Virus record (IMG/VR): IMGVR_UViG_3300045988_086160
Strand: one strand, 5' to 3'
Length of the DNA: 41,991 bases
DNA from: a virus
The notes below the pieces were generated by a model that was given only the letters and a program-made list of their open reading frames with translations, was not told where the DNA came from and made no database searches. A program made the translations under genes and the position numbers. Below are positions 2,839 through 41,991 of this stretch, in pieces. Position 1 is the first letter of the stretch. Each line of letters opens with the position of its first letter.

Positions 2839-3192
2839 ATGGAAAACAAGACTAATCTTCCCAAAACTCTGTCCTTCACCTTTGAAGGCAGGGATTATAC
2901 GCTTGAGTTTACCGCTCGCACTTGCGAAGTCGCATACACCAAGTATGACCTTCGCATTGAAGACGGTGCTTCCGCTATTTTCAGGCTTCCCACACTGTTT
3001 AAGTGCGCATTGCTGAAAAACCATGCGGACATTTCGAATGCACTCGTTGAGCGTATGCTTGACGCACTCGGCAACAAAGCCGAACTTGCGGGCAAACTTG
3101 CTGAAATGTATCTTGCGCCCGCAATGTCGCTTGTTGAGGAAAGCAAGGACGAAGAAGAGGGAAACGGAATCAGCTGGAACGCAAGTTTCTAA
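2839..3192 (+). CDS. Tail assembly chaperone (gpG-like)
   Basis: 117 aa, acidic C-terminus, between the major tail and tape measure genes. Contains a slippery heptamer near its 3' end. Confidence 0.75.
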   Translation: MENKTNLPKTLSFTFEGRDYTLEFTARTCEVAYTKYDLRIEDGASAIFRLPTLFKCALLKNHADISNALVERMLDALGNKAELAGKLAEMYLAPAMSLVEESKDEEEGNGISWNASF

Positions 3193-13841: not shown

Positions 13842-14456
13842 ATGGACAACAACTTCACTCCTGCCGATTATGCGGCAATGAACGGCGGCTTCGGCGGCGG
13901 CAATCAGGAATGGCTCTGGATAATTCTGTTCTTCCTGTTTGCAGGCGGCGGAAACGGCTTTGGCGGCAACCGTAAAGACTGCGCAACCACCGAGGACGTG
14001 CAGAACCAGTTCAATTTTGCGGCACTTGAGCGTCAGAACGGCGAGACTGTTGCGGCGGTTGCGAACAACACTACCGCTGTTACCAACGCAGTAAAAGACA
14101 GTGAAATCAGGCTTCAGCAGGGCATCAGCGCACTTGCTGGCATGGAGCAGAACATTATCGGCAATATGTCAAAATGCTGCTGCGAAACCCTTCGTGGCAT
14201 TGACGGCGTGAACTATAATGCCGCAATGAATACCGCTGCAATCAATGCAAACACCACAGCGCAGGTACAGAAGATTCTTGACGCAATCACGGGCAACAGA
14301 ATGGCGGATATGCAGAACCAGATTAACCAGCTCCAGCTTCAGTCACAGCTTTGCGGTGTGGTTCGCTACCCTACCAACACGACCTATTCGGTTAACTCTC
14401 CCTGTTTCTGCGGTAACGGCTTCAACGGCAACGGCGGCTGCGGTTGCGGATACTAA
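13842..14456 (+). CDS. Hypothetical membrane-anchored Gly-rich / Cys-rich protein (YjcZ-like N-terminus by eye)
   Basis: 204 aa. N-terminus GGFGGGNQEWLWIILFFLFAGGGNGFGG, an Asn/Ala/Thr-rich middle, Cys clusters CCCE and CFCGNGFNGNGGCGCGY at the end. Confidence 0.65.
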   Translation: MDNNFTPADYAAMNGGFGGGNQEWLWIILFFLFAGGGNGFGGNRKDCATTEDVQNQFNFAALERQNGETVAAVANNTTAVTNAVKDSEIRLQQGISALAGMEQNIIGNMSKCCCETLRGIDGVNYNAAMNTAAINANTTAQVQKILDAITGNRMADMQNQINQLQLQSQLCGVVRYPTNTTYSVNSPCFCGNGFNGNGGCGCGY

Positions 14457-14477
14457 TCAACTTTGACTTAATCGGCG

Positions 14478-14511
14478 GGTATCATTTTCGTGGCGACACG
14501 AATTTGATACC
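14478..14511 (+). other. Intergenic stem-loop with a GCGA (GNRA) tetraloop
   Basis: GGTATCA..TTCGTG GCGA CACGAA..TGATACC forms 7 + 6 bp around a 2x2 internal loop. No T-tract follows. Confidence 0.5.
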
Positions 14512-14534
14512 TTGCACCATATCGGAGGTAAACT

Positions 14535-14966
14535 ATGTCATGTTCGAATAATTTCAGGAAATCAGCAGTAAGCACGGTAAACACAGCGGCGCAGACCGTA
14601 ACGGCAAACGCAACCCCGCTTTCCCTGCTCGGCAGTGTATGTTACAACAGCGGCTGTTCGCTGTCCGCCAATGCAAGCGGCATCAACATCAAAAGCAGCG
14701 GGCTTTATCCCGCCTCAGGAAGCGTCACAATCACTCCGACAGCGGCAGGGACTGTTACTGTATACCTTGCGCTAAACGGCGTTACACTGCCTTGTAGCGT
14801 GCGTCAGCAAACGGTTGTGGCGGCATCACCTATCACCATAGACACCTCGGCAAGTGCGTTCGGCGCAGGGGCTTGCGCTTGCAACACATCAACTTTAACG
14901 CTTGTTGTCTCGGGTGCAGCCGGAACGGTTGACTATGTAACGGCAGGGGCGGTACGCCTCGCATAA
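14535..14966 (+). CDS. Hypothetical beta-rich protein resembling the C-terminal (C1q/TNF-like) domain of BclA-type exosporium proteins
   Basis: 143 aa, rich in Ala, Thr, Ser, Val and Gly. The segment SSGLYPASGSVTITPTAAGTVTVYLALNGVTLP looks BclA-C-like by eye. GGAGG RBS. Confidence 0.55.
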   Translation: MSCSNNFRKSAVSTVNTAAQTVTANATPLSLLGSVCYNSGCSLSANASGINIKSSGLYPASGSVTITPTAAGTVTVYLALNGVTLPCSVRQQTVVAASPITIDTSASAFGAGACACNTSTLTLVVSGAAGTVDYVTAGAVRLA

Positions 14967-14980
14967 GAAAGGCGGAAGCA

Positions 14981-15550
14981 ATGGCGGCAAGCGAGATACT
15001 GTCTAAAATAGCAACACATCAGATAAAAGGCATAATGTTTCATGCTCAAATGGCGGATTATTTCGACTTTTTGAACCTCCGTGGCTTCAAACGGTTGCAT
15101 GAGTATCAGTACATGAGCGAATCAGCCGAATATCGGAAGACTTGCAGGTTTTGCATAAACCATTGCTACAAACTATGCAAAATCGGGCAAACGGATGACC
15201 CGCACATCATACCCGACAGGTGGTACAGCGCACGGCGGAGCGAAGTGGATACCAACACGAAGCGCAGGGCTGTTGTGGAAGCGTTCGAACGGTATGTATT
15301 GTGGGAGCAAAACACACTGCAACTTTACGAACAGTGCTATTCCGAACTTGTTGCGGAAGGCAAAATTGCAATAGCGGATTATGTCAAAAATCTCATTGCA
15401 GACGTTGCGGACGAACTCAAGCACGCTTCCCGCTTGCGCCTGGAGCTTGCAAACACTGACGGCGATATTATACACGTTTATGACCTGCAAGAGGCTATAC
15501 ACGAGGATTACAAGCAAAAAACGAGGGTGGTCGGCGTGATACTCTCTTGA
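14981..15550 (+). CDS. Hypothetical four-helix ferritin-like protein
   Basis: 189 aa. IKGIMFHAQMADYFDFLNLRGFKRLHEYQYMSESAEYRK echoes ferritin helices A/B, but the metal ligands are not obvious. Confidence 0.55.
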   Translation: MAASEILSKIATHQIKGIMFHAQMADYFDFLNLRGFKRLHEYQYMSESAEYRKTCRFCINHCYKLCKIGQTDDPHIIPDRWYSARRSEVDTNTKRRAVVEAFERYVLWEQNTLQLYEQCYSELVAEGKIAIADYVKNLIADVADELKHASRLRLELANTDGDIIHVYDLQEAIHEDYKQKTRVVGVILS

Positions 15551-30547: not shown

Positions 30548-31297
30548 ATGCACTATCAAGGCGGCAAATACAGATTCATCAAACATATAACGCCGATAAT
30601 ACAGACGGAGATAGACAAACACCAGGCACGGCATTTTATATCGCCGTTTTGCGGAGCGTACAACATCGAGAGCGCAATCGTGCATACGGACAAACTCTGT
30701 AACGATAAGAATGCTTATACTATTCGAATGTGGCAAGAATTGCAGAACGGCAGGGAATTTCCGTCAACCGTCACGGAAGAGCAGTACAAGCATGTGCGTG
30801 ACCACAAAGACGAAGACCCCGCATTGACAGGATTCATCGGAGCGGGCTGTTCATATGCGGGAAAATGGTTTCACGGCTACGCAAGAGACAGGCGAGGGGC
30901 GAACTATGCGGACGCTGCAAAACGGGGCAATGAACGCATGATGAATGCAGGGCTGAAACACGCAGTATTTACGGCAGGGGACTACAAGGACGTTGAGATA
31001 CCGCCTGACACGGTAATGTATTGCGACCCTCCGTATGCAAACACGCGCGGATATGACGGCGCAAAGGGATTCGACTCCGCCGAATTTTGGGCATACATGG
31101 ACGAGCTTCTTGACAACACACCGAATTTGTCAATTTTCGTATCCGAAAAGACAGCACCAGCGGGATGGCGGGAAGTGTGGCAAAAAGAGTGTTTGCAGGA
31201 AGTCAACAAGAACCCAAAGAATACAGGCAGACGCAGGATAGAGCGACTGTTTTACAAGAGCAACAGAGAGGAACAAGATGGATACATCAAGGCTTGA
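30548..31297 (+). CDS. dam: D12-class N6-adenine DNA methyltransferase (Dam-like)
   Basis: N-terminal YQGGKYRFIKHI and catalytic YCDPPYANT (DPPY). Confidence 0.85.
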   Translation: MHYQGGKYRFIKHITPIIQTEIDKHQARHFISPFCGAYNIESAIVHTDKLCNDKNAYTIRMWQELQNGREFPSTVTEEQYKHVRDHKDEDPALTGFIGAGCSYAGKWFHGYARDRRGANYADAAKRGNERMMNAGLKHAVFTAGDYKDVEIPPDTVMYCDPPYANTRGYDGAKGFDSAEFWAYMDELLDNTPNLSIFVSEKTAPAGWREVWQKECLQEVNKNPKNTGRRRIERLFYKSNREEQDGYIKA

Positions 31298-32699
31298 AAT
31301 AATACGGCAGTGCAACCCTGCACAAAACCCCGATAAGACCCGCTACACATGGGATGAACGTGGCATGGGGCTGTTGTTTGCGGAGGCATACAGGGACGTA
31401 CTGCGGTATTGCCCGGAACGCAAAACATGGTATGCCTATGCGGACGGACGATGGCAGCCCGATTCAGGCGCATTATTGTGTGCAGAGCAGATAAAGGCAT
31501 TCAGCCGCTTAATGACGCTGTATTGCGCCGAGATAGAGGATGACAGCCTAAGACAGGCTTATACATCGTTCGTTGCGAAAATGGGCGACAGGCGGTTTAG
31601 AGACCGCATAGCAAAGGATGCCGCCAGCGTATTTCCAATATCGGCACGGCAGTTCGACAGTAAGCCCGAATTGATTAATTGCAAAAACGGCACATATGAC
31701 TTGCAGGCAATGCGCTTCCGCAAGCATGATTGGCGGGACTTTCTGACGATGCAAACAAATTTTAGGTACACGCAGACCCCGCCGCAATGCGGCAGATGGG
31801 AACGCTTTATCGCCGAAATCACGGAAGGGGACACGGATAAAGCAGAATACCTCCAGAAAGCCGCAGGATACGCTGTAACAGGCTTTAACCGTGAAGAGTG
31901 TATGTTTATACTCTGGGGCAAAAGCACGCGTAACGGCAAATCTACGCTGTTAAACGCTATACAGTACGCACTGGGCGATTATGGCACGGTAGCACCTGTC
32001 AGTGTGATATGCACACACGGCACGAGCAGGAATGCAGATTCGGCAACTCCGACCCTTGCAAGGCTTGCGGGCAAACGCTTCGTCACAATGGCGGAATCCA
32101 ACCAGTACGGCAGGCTTGATGAAGAAACGGTAAAGCAAATCACAGGCGGTGAGGAAATATCAGCAAGGAATCTTTATGAAAGCCCGATAACGTATCTCCC
32201 GCAGTTTACATTGTGGCTGTCATGCAACGACCTTCCCGAGGTCAGGGATAAATCCGTATTTGCAAGCGACCGTATCCGCTTAATCGAGCTTAACAGGCAT
32301 TTCAGCGAAGCCGAACGTGATGAAACCTTAAAGGACTACTTCCGACAGGAAGACGCAATGCAGGGCATTTTTAAGTGGCTGACGGACGGATACGCAATGT
32401 ACCGACAGCAGGGACTAAAACTCCCAGACAGCATGAAACAAAGTCTGCGCAAGTATGAAAGCTCAAACGATGTTGTTGCACAGTATATAATCTCAAACTG
32501 TTCGGAAATCCCGAACGGTTCAACCTTTATAACCGACTTATATATACGATATAAATCTTTCTGTAAAGAAAACGGATATTATATCATGAATGCACGGAAA
32601 TTTGCAGAAAATATACAAGAAAAATATGAAGTCAGGAAAGACGAAAACGGATATAATCGTGCAGTCGGATTGATTCTAAATCAAAAGGATAAACAGTAA
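31278..32699 (+). CDS. P4/D5-family primase-helicase (NTPase)
   Basis: ...ERFIAEITEGDTDKAEYLQKAAGYAVTG...FILWGKSTRNGKSTLLNAI... matches the D5_N / P4 primase C-terminal layout with Walker A. Confidence 0.85.
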   Translation: MDTSRLEIIRQCNPAQNPDKTRYTWDERGMGLLFAEAYRDVLRYCPERKTWYAYADGRWQPDSGALLCAEQIKAFSRLMTLYCAEIEDDSLRQAYTSFVAKMGDRRFRDRIAKDAASVFPISARQFDSKPELINCKNGTYDLQAMRFRKHDWRDFLTMQTNFRYTQTPPQCGRWERFIAEITEGDTDKAEYLQKAAGYAVTGFNREECMFILWGKSTRNGKSTLLNAIQYALGDYGTVAPVSVICTHGTSRNADSATPTLARLAGKRFVTMAESNQYGRLDEETVKQITGGEEISARNLYESPITYLPQFTLWLSCNDLPEVRDKSVFASDRIRLIELNRHFSEAERDETLKDYFRQEDAMQGIFKWLTDGYAMYRQQGLKLPDSMKQSLRKYESSNDVVAQYIISNCSEIPNGSTFITDLYIRYKSFCKENGYYIMNARKFAENIQEKYEVRKDENGYNRAVGLILNQKDKQ

Positions 32700-33137: not shown

Positions 33138-33176
33138 AGAGTAAATAATATATCATCAGTAACGGAGAAAGGGAAA

Positions 33177-33722
33177 ATGGAAGAAAAAAAGACAGCAACG
33201 AAGAACAGCAGCAGGAAGCAGTCAACAGCGGTATCAAAACCGAAGAACACGAAGGTTGCGACTCCGCAAAACGATGAATCAAGGGCAATGGTATCTCAGC
33301 TATTGTCCGAGGTTGCTGTTGCGGCACGGATGCCCAAGGTACGCAACGATGAAGAACTCGCTCTTAGGTTCGAACAGTATTTCGACTATTGCTCCGCTAA
33401 CGGTATCGTTCCCACCATCGAGGAAATGTACCTCTACACAGGCTACTCAATAGGCAGTGTAACCAATTGGCTTGAAGGTAAACATGGATTCAGTCAACAT
33501 ACAGCGTCTATTGTAAGAAGAGCAAGGGACTTTGTACAAGCTTCTGATGCTAAACTTGCAATTAGCGGTAAAATTGATAAAATACTGTACATATTCAGGG
33601 GGAAGAATTTTTATTCAATGACCGATTCTGTCAAAATTGTGGCAGAAATGCAACAAACTGAGGGCAAAAGTGTCAAAGAATTGCAAGAAATATACGCAAA
33701 GTCAATACCAATTGAGGAATAA
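33177..33722 (+). CDS. terS: Terminase small subunit
   Basis: 181 aa from ATG 33177 (the track start 33126 lies inside the promoter). ...YFDYCSANGIVPTIEEMYLYTGYSIGSVTNWLEG...ILYIFRGKNFYSMTD pattern is typical of small terminases. Confidence 0.7.
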   Translation: MEEKKTATKNSSRKQSTAVSKPKNTKVATPQNDESRAMVSQLLSEVAVAARMPKVRNDEELALRFEQYFDYCSANGIVPTIEEMYLYTGYSIGSVTNWLEGKHGFSQHTASIVRRARDFVQASDAKLAISGKIDKILYIFRGKNFYSMTDSVKIVAEMQQTEGKSVKELQEIYAKSIPIEE

Positions 33723-33753
33723 CGGGGCTACTTTAGGTCAATTTCGCACAAAA

Positions 33754-33769
33754 TGTTTCACGTGAAACA
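33754..33769. promoter_or_regulatory. parS site, perfect palindrome TGTTTCACGTGAAACA
   Basis: Exact fit to the conserved ParB/Spo0J site TGTTNCACGTGAAACA, in non-coding DNA. Confidence 0.75.
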
Positions 33770-33866
33770 CCATGGCGGGGACTATTGTGCTGTTTTGTAT
33801 ATTATAATGTGGCAAACTTGTGACAAAATGTGTCAGCGACTCTCTGGCGCAAATTCATATAAAAAA

Positions 33867-33882
33867 TGTTTCCCGTGAAACA
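33867..33882. promoter_or_regulatory. parS-like site TGTTTCCCGTGAAACA (15/16)
   Basis: One mismatch to the first site. Embedded in the same ~29-bp repeat. Confidence 0.65.
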
Positions 33883-34200
33883 TCATGGCGGAATCACTGT
33901 TTACAGTATAGCATACTACCGAATGTTTGCCAAGAGTTACCGAATATCAAAATTTAATGTTGTAGTAACAATGCAAGGCGAACATAAAAACGCGCTTGCG
34001 TTATAGCCTTAAACGCACATAACAGGCAACGCAACAGCGGAACAATGAACATGTACAGGTGTACAGCCGAATAATCAGCGGCAATATAGGCAATGCAAGC
34101 GGCACGAATGCAGTATTGCTATAGCCTTCAATCGGGACGGAAGCGGATTATTCCGCCATGATATTATACAGAAAAAGCATAGTATAATACAGCGGAGCAT

Positions 34201-34232
34201 AAAAAGCCCGCCGGAACATTGCATTCCGACGG
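34201..34232 (-). terminator. Intrinsic terminator of the minus-strand operon
   Basis: On the minus strand, CCGTCGGAA-tgcaatg-TTCCGGCGG (one mismatch) is followed by GCTTTTT. Lies 19 nt after the last stop codon. Confidence 0.6.
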
Positions 34233-34250
34233 TTAAAACGTGTAGCGGGT

Positions 34251-34667
34251 TTACCTTCCGCTGTCGTTCTCCGCTTGTCGCTGAAGTACCCGCAGCGTTT
34301 TAAGCAGGCGGTCACGGTTCAGCCGCTTGCTGTCAATTATTTCATCAATCAAATCTTGCAAGTCGTTCGCAATGCAAAACAGACTATCGGACAACGGCTC
34401 AACCTCCATTTCGAACGCTTCTTTTTCCTCGTAAATCAAATCAATCGTTTGCATAAGTCTTTTTGCCCAAAAAGCAAAGAACGCCGCTAAAGTTTCGTTG
34501 TTTGATTCTTTGAGGGCTTCCGAAACAAGCCCCGAGACTGAAACGCCTTTTTCTGCAAGTGCCTTCACGACGGAAGGGCAGCCGAAATAGTACGTTGACA
34601 GTTTGTCTTTGCAATGCAAGCCTTTTTCCCGTTTTTCGTATTTGCCGCAAAATTCTGCATATGTCAT
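34251..34667 (-). CDS. Hypothetical protein (island gene 4)
   Basis: 138 aa. Its GGAGG RBS lies inside the end of the upstream gene. Helical, with an acidic centre. No family recognised. Confidence 0.65.
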   Translation of the reverse strand: MTYAEFCGKYEKREKGLHCKDKLSTYYFGCPSVVKALAEKGVSVSGLVSEALKESNNETLAAFFAFWAKRLMQTIDLIYEEKEAFEMEVEPLSDSLFCIANDLQDLIDEIIDSKRLNRDRLLKTLRVLQRQAENDSGR

Positions 34668-34670
34668 TTT

Positions 34671-35063
34671 TTAATCCTCCCTGCTATCGGTGAACACGGG
34701 CTGCACAACGGCTTGCGTTCTGTCGGTGTTTAATGCATATATCACAAGCCGCCGCCGTCTTTCGGCGGCATCGCAGTTCCGGAGTTCGATTCTGACCGTC
34801 CCGCTAAAAAGTGGAAGCAACGCCTTAAGGGTTTCAACGTCAATATCGATGGTCTCAATTGCGCCTCCGCACGGCATGTATGAGTAAACATCCGATGCCG
34901 TGCATACTGAGTTTTCGTCTTCCGGCACATACGCAACGCCGAAACGACTGTACAGCGTTAACCCGTTGCTGTCGGCATACAAGCTTCCGCTGTCGTTTCC
35001 GTCAACCTTGTTTAATTGCTTGCGTATTTTTTGCATTTTTTCGAAAGTCTTCCCATTAATCAT
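34671..35063 (-). CDS. Hypothetical protein (island gene 3)
   Basis: 130 aa from ATG 35063, preceded by GGAGAAGGAG. The track start at 35108 is upstream of the RBS. Confidence 0.6.
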   Translation of the reverse strand: MINGKTFEKMQKIRKQLNKVDGNDSGSLYADSNGLTLYSRFGVAYVPEDENSVCTASDVYSYMPCGGAIETIDIDVETLKALLPLFSGTVRIELRNCDAAERRRRLVIYALNTDRTQAVVQPVFTDSRED

Positions 35064-35168
35064 TTTTTTCTCCTTCTCCCCCGTATAGCCAGATAGGACA
35101 GCTTGCAATTTATTTTTTAATCAACAGCGGCAATGCCGCAAGTACCAGCAGGAAAAGCACGAAAGTCA

Positions 35169-35393
35169 TTAATACCACCTCAGCCTTTTCAAAACGCCGT
35201 AGTACGCGCGGATTCCGTACACGTTGTTATAGCACCCGAGCTTTTTATCGAAGACGTACGGAAAAACTTGCTTTTGCTCCGTGCCGCTGTCATTTTGCCA
35301 GACTCCGTTGCATATCCTGCCGTCTTCAACTCGGAAGCTCAGATTCTCGTTTTTTTTGTGCCAGCCGTCGATGTATGTTGTTCTTTTACTCAT
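35169..35393 (-). CDS. Hypothetical small protein (island gene 2)
   Basis: 74 aa with an AAGGAGG RBS. Rich in Trp, Tyr and Gly. Confidence 0.55.
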   Translation of the reverse strand: MSKRTTYIDGWHKKNENLSFRVEDGRICNGVWQNDSGTEQKQVFPYVFDKKLGCYNNVYGIRAYYGVLKRLRWY

Positions 35394-35411
35394 TGTCTTC
35401 TTCCTCCTTCG

Positions 35412-36290
35412 TTAAGACAGCCTGTAGATATAGTACGTTTCGTCATATGACGTGACTTCATGTTCCTCGCCGTCATATGACGAAATGAAATGCCCGCGTC
35501 CGTCGGCTGCAATTGCGTCTTCGACGAACTCATTCAAATCGTCAATCAACGCTTGGATAATTGCGTTCGCGCCTTCGCAAAGTCTTTTTTGTACAGCCCG
35601 AATCGCAAGCCGTAAATCATTCAAATCGACGGGGTCGTCACAATACACAATGTCGTGTTTTAAGTGTTCAGCTATGAACTCGGGGTTGAATGCCCACAAT
35701 TCGGCTTTGATTATCTGGTATGCAAGCGCATATGCCCGCTCGTCTTCAAGCACATAAAACTCTTCGCCGCAAGCTTCATACCGATACTCGCTGTAGGGGC
35801 TGCTGAAATAGCGGGCAACCGTGACTGATTTCATATCGTCTTCGGTGTAGCCGTCGCGTTGGGCTATGAATTTTTTCAAGGCAACCTCTTCCGGGTAGCT
35901 TTTTTCAGTGAGCGTTTGCTCATTGTCTTCGTCCTCCTTCTCATCGAGTATCTTTTGAACTTTGTCGTTTCCCAGACTGTCTTCCTCCGACAGGATATAG
36001 TCGGCAATGTCTTCAGCAAATATCGGCAATTCCCACGCGCCGTACGAATCAAGATTACCGTATCCGTCGGTGCCCCAGAAGTCTTTCATGAAGTCAAAGT
36101 CGCCAGACCGAATCATGCGTACAAGTTCCCATTTTTCGACGCCGTCGAGCACTTCTTCAAGCTCGTCCATGTCGTATATATAGTCGTCCGCGCAGTTAGC
36201 GGCAGCGCAATAAGCATTATGCAATGCAATTTTATCGTCGATGCCCATGCCGTTGATATAATCAACGAGTTTCTTTTTCATTTCGTTCAT
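35412..36290 (-). CDS. Very acidic hypothetical protein (island gene 1; possible DNA mimic)
   Basis: 292 aa. My hand count gives about 69 Asp/Glu versus about 27 Lys/Arg. The C-terminus GRGHFISSYDGEEHEV..YYIYRLS faintly resembles ArdA-type proteins. Confidence 0.65.
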   Translation of the reverse strand: MNEMKKKLVDYINGMGIDDKIALHNAYCAAANCADDYIYDMDELEEVLDGVEKWELVRMIRSGDFDFMKDFWGTDGYGNLDSYGAWELPIFAEDIADYILSEEDSLGNDKVQKILDEKEDEDNEQTLTEKSYPEEVALKKFIAQRDGYTEDDMKSVTVARYFSSPYSEYRYEACGEEFYVLEDERAYALAYQIIKAELWAFNPEFIAEHLKHDIVYCDDPVDLNDLRLAIRAVQKRLCEGANAIIQALIDDLNEFVEDAIAADGRGHFISSYDGEEHEVTSYDETYYIYRLS

Positions 36291-36339
36291 TTTGTTGTTC
36301 CTTCCTGGTTTCGGGTTTTCCTTCCCTTTTGATAGTTAC

Positions 36340-36368
36340 AGTATACCAGATACGGCGGCGCATTGCAA
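36340..36368 (-). promoter_or_regulatory. Promoter of the minus-strand operon, TTGCAA-17-TATACT
   Basis: Read on the minus strand: -35 at 36363-36368 and -10 at 36340-36345, with an exact 17-nt spacer, about 45 nt upstream of ATG 36290. Confidence 0.55.
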
Positions 36369-36539
36369 GCATTTTTTGAAAATATACAACGAGCAGCAGA
36401 TAGTATAATCCCTTTACTTTATTAGGTTTTTTCTATTGCAGATTGAAGCAGGAGGATATATCTTTAAAATTGTTTGGTATATTTTGAGTGCGTATTATGA
36501 TATTGTATTGTTATGATTCAGTTAACATGAAATATATTT

Positions 36540-37010
36540 TGCGTGCAATTGTGACAGCTCCGGAGGCTGCACAATGCGATAGCTGTATATCATAGCCTAT
36601 GTTACAATGCCCGATATAATTATGGTACTGCATTTTATCGTATGCCGTCTGCGTACCGTGCCTTGCTATGCTTTACACTCCGCCATGCTTATTTATTGTA
36701 TGAGTACATAAATGCTTGTTTTACGCTGTTTTTGCTTCCCTGCTTTGCTGTCGGCGTACGTGCTGTCGTTCCGCCATGTACTATGTAAAATATTAATAGC
36801 GTAACATTGCTATGCGGTATTATGCAGTGTATGCAGCTTGCCTTGCTTGAGTATGCGATACTATGCAAGATTATAATTGCTGTTTATTTGCTGCTGCTAT
36901 TGCATTGTGTGCGGGCTATTGCGTGCATATTGCTATTGCTTTGTGGTTGTTTATTGTGTGTGTTGTCGGTATTGTGCTATGAAATAATGACAGAGAGTAA
37001 GCCCCACGGT
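36540..37010 (+). repeat. T/G-rich non-coding tract of degenerate short repeats
   Basis: Recurrent GCCTTGC, CTATTGC, TATGC and TGCTATTGC units. Contains two CCGCCATG boxes (36680-36687, 36771-36778). No RBS-supported ORF. Confidence 0.7.
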
Positions 37011-37076
37011 GGGGGATATGCGGTATGAGTGCAGAAACAACTTTACCCCTCTGACCACATTTCAACAAAAAGACCC

Positions 37077-37105
37077 TTTCTTCAAACACTGTTTCATGAT
37101 ATAAT
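37077..37105 (+). promoter_or_regulatory. Possible extended -10 promoter for terL (TGaTATAAT)
   Basis: TGATATAAT at 37097-37105. The -35 region is weak (TTTCTT). Confidence 0.35.
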
Positions 37106-37130
37106 AAATACATACCATAGGAGGCACAGT

Positions 37131-38807
37131 ATGGACATAGCAAAGCTAATTTTCGAACGCATAGAAGAAGACCCGACCAATGCTGAGGCATGTAACGATT
37201 TAATCGACTGGTGCATTGCAGAAGCCGCCGCAAAGCCGAAAAAGACGCATTATTACAGTGCTGAGCTTAGGAAAGTGCTTTCAAAGCAACTGCGCAATAA
37301 GTGTGAAGGTGACGTTGAGCAATTATTCAACGCATACAGACGGAGCTTGTTGTTTGATGCACCTGATTCATTTGACGCATATTTGCTGTATTTAGAGATA
37401 GACAGACCGCCAGCAGAACGATTCTATCAGCCCAGAAGAAAACGGCTCAAAGAGGTTGTAGACGCATTGCAGGCACTCACAGACAACGAGCTTGATGAGC
37501 TGTTCATCAGTATGCCGCCAAGAGTGGGCAAGAGTACAATACTTTTGTTTTATGTTACTTGGCTGATTGGCAGAAATGATGAGCGGTCGAATTTGTATAG
37601 TGCATATTCAAGCACGATAACGCAAGCGTTTTATAACGGCATATTGGAGGTACTCACCGACCCTATCACATACCGATGGGCTGACGTGTTCCCGAATGAG
37701 CGGATAGCGAAAACGAATGCGCAGGAAACGACAATTGATTTAGGGCGCAAGAAGCGTTATGCCAGCCTTACATGCAGGTCATTGTACGGAACGCTTAACG
37801 GTGCGTGTGACTGCAACGGTGTAGTTATATCGGATGACCTTATCGGCGGCATAGAAGAGGCACTGAACCGTGACAGGCTTGTTTCGGCATGGAGCAAAGT
37901 CGATAACAATTTGTTACCGAGAGCGAAAGAAACGGCGAAAGTGTTGTGGTGCGGTACACGTTGGAGCATGATTGACCCTGCGGGACTTAGGATGGAGCTG
38001 TTGATGAACAGCGACCAATACAAAAAACGTCGGTTTAAGATAATAAACATTCCCGCACTCGATGAGAACGATGAATCCAACTTTTACTATGATTACGATG
38101 TGGGATTCAGTACGGAGTATTACCGCCAGAGACGTGCTTCATTCGAACGCAACAACGATATGGCATCATGGGTTGCGCAGTACATGGGCGAACCTATAGA
38201 GCGTGAAGGCACGGTATTCAATCCTGAGGATATGCGGTACTACAACGGCGAACTTCCGGAAGGCGAGCCTGATAGGGTGTTCCTTGCGTGTGACCCGTCA
38301 TTCGGCGGCGGCGACTATTGTGCCGCTCCCGTGTGCTACCAGTACGGTGAAGACATTTACGTTCACGATGTTGTGTACGATAACGGCGATAAGCGCATAA
38401 CCCAACCCCTGCTTGCAAGAGCGATAATTGACAACAACGTCAGGACGGCGCAATTTGAAGCCACAAAGGCTACTGAGACGTACAGAGACGGCGTACAAGA
38501 GCTTTTAAAGCAAAAGGGGTACAGAATATCGATAACGACAAAAGCCGCTCCTACACGCACTACAAACGGCGTGAGCGCAATGAAGGAACAGCGCATACTC
38601 GATAAAGCACCTGAAATCCGTGAACGGATGATATTCCGTGAAGAGGGGAAACGCACAAAACCGTATTCGTTGTTCATGCAGAATGTATTCTCGTTCAAAT
38701 TCATGGGCAAGAACAAGCATGATGACGCTCCCGACAGCCTTGTTATGGCAATGAACATGGTGACAGGCAGACGGCAGAGGGCTGATATATTCCAGCGACC
38801 GTTCTAA
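37131..38807 (+). CDS. terL: Terminase large subunit
   Basis: AGGAGG RBS before ATG 37131 (the track start is 37029). Walker A SMPPRVGKST. C-terminal nuclease-type acidic motifs. 558 aa. Confidence 0.9.
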   Translation: MDIAKLIFERIEEDPTNAEACNDLIDWCIAEAAAKPKKTHYYSAELRKVLSKQLRNKCEGDVEQLFNAYRRSLLFDAPDSFDAYLLYLEIDRPPAERFYQPRRKRLKEVVDALQALTDNELDELFISMPPRVGKSTILLFYVTWLIGRNDERSNLYSAYSSTITQAFYNGILEVLTDPITYRWADVFPNERIAKTNAQETTIDLGRKKRYASLTCRSLYGTLNGACDCNGVVISDDLIGGIEEALNRDRLVSAWSKVDNNLLPRAKETAKVLWCGTRWSMIDPAGLRMELLMNSDQYKKRRFKIINIPALDENDESNFYYDYDVGFSTEYYRQRRASFERNNDMASWVAQYMGEPIEREGTVFNPEDMRYYNGELPEGEPDRVFLACDPSFGGGDYCAAPVCYQYGEDIYVHDVVYDNGDKRITQPLLARAIIDNNVRTAQFEATKATETYRDGVQELLKQKGYRISITTKAAPTRTTNGVSAMKEQRILDKAPEIRERMIFREEGKRTKPYSLFMQNVFSFKFMGKNKHDDAPDSLVMAMNMVTGRRQRADIFQRPF

Positions 38808-41580: not shown

Positions 41581-41991
41581 ATGGCAGATACTTTTGCTAC
41601 AAGTTTTGCGGTGCTTAACTATAGCGGTATGCTTTTCAATAAAGGCAATACCCGCACACCGCTTTCATCTATCATAGGCTCTCGTGCAAAAACTACCAAC
41701 CATGTAGAATTTGTCACTGGACAGAGCTATACTTCCGGCGGCGGCACTCAGCCTGCAATTTCCGAAACAGCCTCCCTTACCGCACCTGATGCTACTGTCG
41801 TTACCCGCACTCAGCAGACTAACGTCACTCAGATTTTCCAGGAAACTATCGGTATTTCGTACGCCAAACAGTCTAACATGGGAACGCTCAGTGGCGTAAA
41901 CATTCAGAATCAGAGTGCAAACCCGCTTAACGAACTCGATTTTCAGGTTGCGGCAAGAATGCAGAAAATTGCGGCGGATATTGAAGCAACC
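41581..41991 (+). CDS. Major capsid protein, N-terminal part (no stop in the window; continues at 120-722)
   Basis: AGGAG RBS before ATG 41581. 137 codons are open to the window end (MADTFATSFAVLNYSGMLFNKGNTRTP...). In frame with ORF 6-722 via the overlap. Confidence 0.8.
   Translation, partial: MADTFATSFAVLNYSGMLFNKGNTRTPLSSIIGSRAKTTNHVEFVTGQSYTSGGGTQPAISETASLTAPDATVVTRTQQTNVTQIFQETIGISYAKQSNMGTLSGVNIQNQSANPLNELDFQVAARMQKIAADIEAT
41873..41991. repeat. Terminal direct repeat copy 2 (identical to 1-119)
   Basis: See copy 1. Confidence 0.9.

Follow-up and report, generated by a model that had tools for sequence, protein, structure and literature searches.

Orphan chromosomal-type parS sites behind a probable small terminase gene in a gut phage lacking partition and integrase genes: candidate loading sites for host ParB

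Two short palindromes in a tailed phage (IMG/VR record IMGVR_UViG_3300045988_086160) resemble parS, the site bound by the chromosomal partition protein ParB (Spo0J), and raise the question of what such a site does on a virus that appears to have no partition genes of its own. We analyzed the whole stretch of DNA (41,991 nt, in the following called the window), its close relatives, its host and other viruses carrying the same 16-mer. The reading that we prefer, at a probability of roughly 55%, is that both palindromes represent orphan parS sites of the chromosomal type, on which the ParB (Spo0J) of the host would load. Most of that weight lies on the binding step.

Based on the 16-bp palindromic consensus TGTTNCACGTGAAACA of chromosomal-type parS (ParB/Spo0J), we scanned the whole genome. 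Allowing up to two mismatches, the two sites (Table 1) were the only matches, compared with 0.16 expected, and the observed count was reached in none of 100 shuffles. No further parS-like match appeared when three mismatches were allowed. The initial annotation had described a perfect palindromic parS followed by a second site at 15/16, 113 bp apart and inside direct repeats of about 29 bp, and had judged a perfect 16-mer to be beyond chance. All of this was borne out: the sites fit the consensus at 16/16 and 15/16 positions, their starts are separated by 113 nt, and the two 29-nt repeat copies are identical at 27 positions. The AAAA sequences on the left of the sites agree with the preference for A at positions -1 and -2 in a set of 159 perfect viral parS sites. 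Position 7, at which site 2 carries a C, was reportedly identified by Jalal et al. in 2020 as a ParB/Noc specificity position. The ATG within each site opens a small reading frame (MFHVKHHGG... and MFPVKHHGG...); both frames were dropped because they have no ribosome-binding sites.

Table 1 Features of the window around the two parS sites.
Feature	Position	Strand	Description
D5-type primase-helicase gene	31278-32699	+	upstream, followed by a small HTH gene and then the probable terS
Probable small terminase subunit gene (terS)	33174..33722	+	182 aa from the ATG used in relatives; open frame from 33126
Direct repeat, copy 1 (29 nt)	33750..33778	+	AAAA + parS + CCATGGCGG
parS site 1	33754..33769	no strand	TGTTTCACGTGAAACA; 16-bp perfect palindrome, 0 mismatches
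GCGACTCTC-type repeat with invariant flank	33828..33862	+	just upstream of parS site 2; CRISPR protospacer
Direct repeat, copy 2 (29 nt)	33863..33891	+	AAAA + parS + TCATGGCGG; 93% identical to copy 1
parS site 2	33867..33882	no strand	TGTTTCCCGTGAAACA; 15/16, A to C at position 7
Conserved non-coding stretch	33892..34250	no strand	contains an inverted partial copy of the repeat flank and the island terminator
Variable island, three ORFs	34251..36290	-	between terS/parS and terL; no informative family matches
Non-coding region upstream of terL	36291..37028	no strand	two inverted CATGGCGG copies
Large terminase subunit gene (terL)	37029..38807	+	PHROG 38, E 4.8e-59

Both sites lie in non-coding DNA (33723 to 34250), directly 3′ of a gene that probably encodes the small terminase subunit. 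This location had been noted from the start and stands, with the terS call itself weak: two libraries gave low-scoring matches (Pfam GP3_package, E 5e-4, under the curated cut-off; PHROG 606 terS, E 4e-4), the gene is located upstream of terL and the portal gene, and its counterparts in relatives are called at 181–184 amino acids. The terS family is narrow, comprising two clusters at 90%, one of them with 601 members, and occurs in gut metagenomes. PDB sequence searches with the terS product and with the 292-aa protein of the island returned nothing. Downstream of terL follow an SPP1-type portal gene (Pfam E 1.9e-71) and a gene for a MuF-like protein. The content of the island between the sites and terL differs among near-identical relatives (ORFs of 138, 145 and 292 aa here, of 74, 176 and 123 aa in L153; L numbers are our labels for contigs and loci), and we therefore take the backbone order to be terS, parS, variable insert, terL. 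The ORFs of the island are the only minus-strand genes of the genome; probably they form an exchangeable cassette with accessory or anti-defence functions.

The window represents a complete, circular genome assembly of ~41.9 kb with a terminal direct repeat or overlap of 119 nt (1-119 and 41873-41991), and its major capsid gene runs across the circular junction, one part of it lying at each end of the window. Because the assembly is complete and circular, genes missing from it are missing from the whole genome. Searching the ~50 ORFs against Pfam, PHROGs and NCBIfam, we found no ParA, ParB or integrase, and tblastn queries with the Soj and Spo0J proteins from a MAG of gut Clostridia matched neither the window nor its relatives even at E ≤ 10, although the positive controls were detected. 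The absence of both partition genes and of an integrase, as initially proposed, is thereby confirmed. Hence, host-type parS sites are present without a ParB of the phage, and no parA and parB genes adjoin them as they adjoin the centromeres of plasmid and phage-plasmid ParABS systems. A 148-aa ORF upstream of a PAPS-reductase-like gene was considered as IbrB/ParB-like and rejected, as it is a small Cys-rich protein without matches. The exact portal protein was found in 82 blocks of public collections and never on a contig longer than 50 kb, which fits a non-integrating phage. Neither a repressor nor anything else indicating a carrier state was found in the phage, and the region has no DNA relatives among GenBank phages.

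The non-coding DNA around the sites holds further conserved elements. Depending on the relative, one to three GCGACTCTC-type units directly precede site 2 (including those of L005, 6600-6680), and they are followed by an invariant stretch of 25 nt that is more conserved than parS itself. These units and the invariant stretch may together be a TerS/pac element. Another short sequence, CATGGCGG, is the most enriched 8-mer of the two non-coding regions on either side of the island, and relatives conserve it as well. Its five genomic copies are all confined to these two regions, two pointing rightward on the left side (33771-33778 and 33884-33891, plus strand) and three leftward (34153-34160, 36680-36687 and 36771-36778, minus strand). 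It could be bound by a regulator, mark the boundary of a cassette, or act like Chi around a pac cut. At 34150-34162, part of the repeat flank recurs in inverted orientation (ATTCCGCCATGAT), and the terminator of the minus-strand island lies at 34208-34232. The 255 nt from 33895 to 34149 are conserved and non-coding, with a 13-bp inverted repeat (ATCATGGCGGAAT / ATTCCGCCATGAT) closing the stretch. Compared with shuffled sequences, the stretch folds better; we make no claim of a non-coding RNA here because covariation is almost nil, and a search of the window against Rfam gave no match.

Among close relatives, at least one parS-like site is kept in all 12 that could be placed, 30–180 nt after the terS stop codon. 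Site 1 is identical in L006, L150 and L153-155, reads TGTTTCACGAGAAACA in L004, and is missing with its whole module in L005, L007 and L008. Site 2 is perfect in L005, reads TGTTTCATGTGAAACA in L136 and AGTTTCCCGTGAAACA in L007, L150, L151 and L152, and is replaced by unrelated sequence in L006. In the lineage of L007, L151 and L152, AGTTTCCCGTGAAACA, a 14/16 match, is the sole site. The variants in the window and its relatives (TGTTTCCCGTGAAACA, TGTTTCACGAGAAACA, TGTTTCATGTGAAACA and AGTTTCCCGTGAAACA) carry the natural substitutions A7C, C8T, T10A and T1A+A7C. Of these four types of substitution, three affect the central ACGT, a less usual place for mismatches in other imperfect sites (9 of 46). 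Conservation of the sites proves little, because the genomes of the relatives are 90–95% identical and the flanks are as conserved as parS or more so. In phages at 53–60% TerL identity, the 8 kb around terL contain no site. The initial annotation had asked for such a check of related phage genomes.

To identify the host, we used the invariant flank that precedes site 2 as a metagenome query and excluded parS itself, since it would have introduced bias. The search returned relatives of the phage and CRISPR arrays with type I-C repeats. One spacer, present in the arrays of L147 and L149, matches L006 and L138 at 35/35 positions and the window at 30/35 (33833-33862). Arrays on chromosomal contigs of 217 kb and 150 kb hold at least 12 spacers against the window, and the sequence on the 5′ side reads TTC or TTT at 10 of 13 protospacers, in agreement with the PAM of type I-C systems. 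One type I-C array is very long, with 172 repeats; the contigs concerned are L157 (8842-20363), L158, L149, L147 and L159. The syntenic locus has the order cas3-cas5d-csd1-cas7-cas4-cas1-cas2, and genes near it are named “Clostridium sp. CAG:138” or “Christensenellales bacterium” at NCBI. The GC content of the host flanks (~47%) is close to that of the phage (48%). Because of the at least 12 spacers and the TTC/TTT PAM bias on contigs of this affiliation, the host is firmly predicted to be an uncultured gut member of the Christensenellales (Clostridium sp. CAG:138). In a Faecousia chromosome (L130), which belongs to gut Clostridia other than the assigned host, the identical 16-mer occurs twice directly upstream of soj-spo0J.

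We further searched for the 16-mer in other viruses and found perfect copies in at least 119 IMG/VR loci, examined with 5–7 kb on each side of the site. By tblastn, a ParB-like match was detected in a single one of the 119 listed loci, and it was weak (35% identity over 68 aa, E 3e-5); ParA was found in none of them. Among the loci listed, 27 were multi-copy, mostly from phi29-like podoviruses with Gp16 ATPase, Phi29 capsid, protein-primed polymerase and connector genes, so that the published phi29 case is widespread in metagenomes. These phi29-like loci (L014, L021, L028, L029, L031, L037, L069, L113 and others) have 2–5 perfect parS sites each, and several such carriers come from the same gut data set as the phage studied here. 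In the phi29-like loci, no ParB was found by tblastn or among the 25 commonest of 43 protein families.

Among the single-copy loci listed, the family most commonly adjoining the site is the large terminase. In the 24 listed loci holding a TerL-like ORF, the site lies within ~150 nt of the start of the TerL frame in nine and up to 2.1 kb upstream of TerL in 17. In one unrelated environmental family (L018, L034, L044, L047, L067, L100 and L126, with perfect parS upstream of terL), the 16-mer is the only invariant block of a ~350-nt non-coding terL leader that has a mean column identity of 42%. In L112, two perfect sites (1843-1858 and 3092-3107) flank a terS of the Sf6 type. A phage-specific protein binding the 16-mer cannot be common to phages whose TerS proteins are unrelated, and host ParB is the simplest common factor. 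A composition-matched control palindrome was found in 8 loci and a centre-swapped one in 39, neither with multi-copy loci. A third control, TGTTCTACGTAGAACA, occurs in at least 120 viral loci (L168-L287) and is as abundant as parS, which makes raw IMG/VR counts a weak argument; in one family this control has a fixed position ~106 nt into the TerL frame. Counts and positions alike are inflated, because many of the contigs are related to one another.

How else might the two palindromes be explained? They could be cis elements of the phage's own, such as a pac site or TerS recognition site, an operator, or a weak leftward terminator hairpin, with the match to parS being coincidental. Their position directly 3′ of terS beside the variable-copy GCGACTCTC repeats, their fusion to the CATGGCGG element of the island-flanking regions and the stronger conservation of their flanks would all suit such an element. 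So would the natural substitutions, which spare the stem GTTTC/GAAAC and hit the loop or the outermost pair alone, and the minus-strand hairpins of -6.7 and -13.6 kcal/mol, which are followed by U-runs and lie downstream of a promoter-like site (10/12) at 33933-33905. However, identity at 16 of 16 positions to one specific known site is very unlikely to arise by chance, and the same 16-mer is present in unrelated phages with different TerS families. The hairpins, moreover, have AT-rich rather than G+C-rich stems and were not called in the terminator scan, so we rejected an intrinsic terminator, and the one at site 2 is no better than shuffles (z -0.75). We consider a phage-specific element unlikely, though a serious rival. 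Host ParB might also be recruited for a task in the lytic cycle at the terminase region instead of for inheritance, for example to silence or time the late/packaging operon, to shield pac, or to assist concatemer handling through SMC. The distances between orphan parS and TerL, the two sites flanking terS in L112, the invariant block in the terL leader of the environmental family and the fact that in the window only the variable inserted island parts terS-parS from terL point in this direction. Against it, many of the 24 TerL-holding loci are mutually related, the control palindrome too has a family-driven fixed position in terL, the phi29-like phages scatter their sites elsewhere, and no mechanism is known; we regard such a role as quite improbable. 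The initial suggestion of a link between the sites and terS or packaging receives some support from comparison, as orphan parS adjoins terminase genes in other lineages as well, but this pattern is confounded by the relatedness of the contigs.

Two further explanations concern what the sites would be good for. In phi29-type spore entrapment, the phage genome would be pulled into the forespore by host Spo0J on parS, with lytic development suppressed in the meantime. The precedent of phi29, the lack of an integrase and the many spore-formers among the Clostridia speak for it, and spore hitch-hiking had been one of two initial inferences, the other being a possible plasmid-like segregation of an episome. 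Spore hitch-hiking found no support. Spo0A boxes (TGTCGAA) are not enriched, with five found compared with 6.2 expected, and all five lie in coding DNA, so that the boxes in early and late promoters which belong to the phi29-type strategy were not found here. The cargo ORFs at 13842-15550, initially labeled spore-surface-like, have no significant match in Pfam or NCBIfam, and the label is left without database support; these three ORFs follow the lysis region, and one is Gly/Cys-rich, one Ser/Thr/Ala-rich and one helical. The gene with an AbrB/SpoVT-type domain, also taken as a clue to sporulation, does have this domain, but the domain is a generic DNA-binding fold. Finally, 18 of 19 human-gut MAGs of the Christensenellales are predicted to be non-sporulating, a figure that holds for the order and does not single out CAG-138 (PMC12536801). 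Spore entrapment is thus very improbable. Hardly more credible, and if anything slightly less so, is a non-functional relic of recombination awaiting decay. The confinement of the sites to a narrow clade, the loss of either copy in some relatives and the mutations in the copies would fit a relic, yet the site is duplicated, none of the 12 placed relatives has lost both copies, and other phage families conserve this 16-mer strictly. A host origin of the flank-extended repeat was also rejected: among GTDB species representatives it has seven matches, none in a Christensenellales genome, and since parS sites are so numerous, this number is consistent with chance.

We return to loading of host ParB as the preferred explanation. 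The phage probably borrows this protein, a strategy established for Bacillus phage phi29. After entry and circularization of the genome, ParB-CTP dimers would load at site 1 and, less well, at site 2, and would spread from there over the terminase region. Loaded ParB could couple the phage DNA to the Soj/ParA and SMC machinery of the host, which would then actively pass the non-integrated phage genome on to daughter cells while the infection is in a carrier state or lysis is delayed. The analysis establishes four points: the identity with parS, the absence of par and integrase genes from the phage, the presence of a site in all close relatives, and the occurrence of orphan parS in unrelated phages. 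The binding of ParB, and above all the benefit to the phage, is inferred. Several observations speak against this reading: the C at position 7 of site 2, the lineage whose sole site is a 14/16 match, the unusual placement of most substitution types in the centre, the stretch before site 2 that is better conserved than the site, the lack of sites at 53–60% TerL identity, and the failure to find any sign of a carrier state. Published work makes such a scheme plausible in parts. In phi29, five parS sites serve spore entrapment that depends on host Spo0J (PMC2731898), which makes the precedent named in the initial annotation a valid one, and a chromosomal par operon together with a single parS stabilizes unstable plasmids (PMC7022226).

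By its sequence, the phage joins the phi29 kind in carrying host-type parS without its own ParB. With phi29 and relatives such as Nf it shares host-type sites, the lack of phage-encoded ParB, ParA and integrase, and the presumed effect, a hijacking of the host segregation machinery. The differences are considerable. phi29 is a protein-primed linear podovirus of a spore-forming host, with dispersed sites and with Spo0A boxes. The phage studied here assembles as a circle and encodes a tape measure and an SPP1-type portal; it carries one or two sites, grouped behind terS, shows no enrichment of Spo0A boxes, and has a host among the Christensenellales that is probably non-sporulating. Compared with the chromosomal parS/ParB(Spo0J)/Soj systems of Firmicutes, the 16-bp sequence is identical, whereas here it is an orphan, located on a virus and away from origin and parAB. 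If the phage persists as an episome, the sites would resemble the extrachromosomal centromeres of the phage-plasmids P1 and N15 and of low-copy plasmids; elements of the P1 and N15 type, however, have their own ParA and ParB and element-specific centromeres, and this phage encodes neither protein. With the pac/TerS repeats of SPP1, P22 and Sf6 the sites have in common that short repeats lie in or beside terS, but those known pac sites are phage-specific and not host parS, and in the present phage the arrangement is known from sequence alone.

A broader generalization, which we put forward as speculative and rather doubtful, is that orphan host-type parS at the terminase/packaging junction may be common among tailed phages well beyond phi29 and has so far escaped description. 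Lytic or non-integrating phages of non-sporulating hosts would then load ParB-CTP clamps beside their packaging genes, either for partition in a carrier state or for coupling packaging or late expression to the host cell cycle. Orphan parS at this junction was found in the present phage, in L112 and in the family with the invariant parS in its terL leader. The interest of the finding would be greater if the association of orphan parS with the terminase across phage lineages holds.

If host ParB truly loads on these sites, the trick known from phi29 would not be confined to phages of Bacillus spore-formers. It would instead offer a general route of persistence in dividing cells to phages that have neither lysogeny nor partition genes, and would bear on the long-term coexistence of “virulent” gut phages with their hosts.
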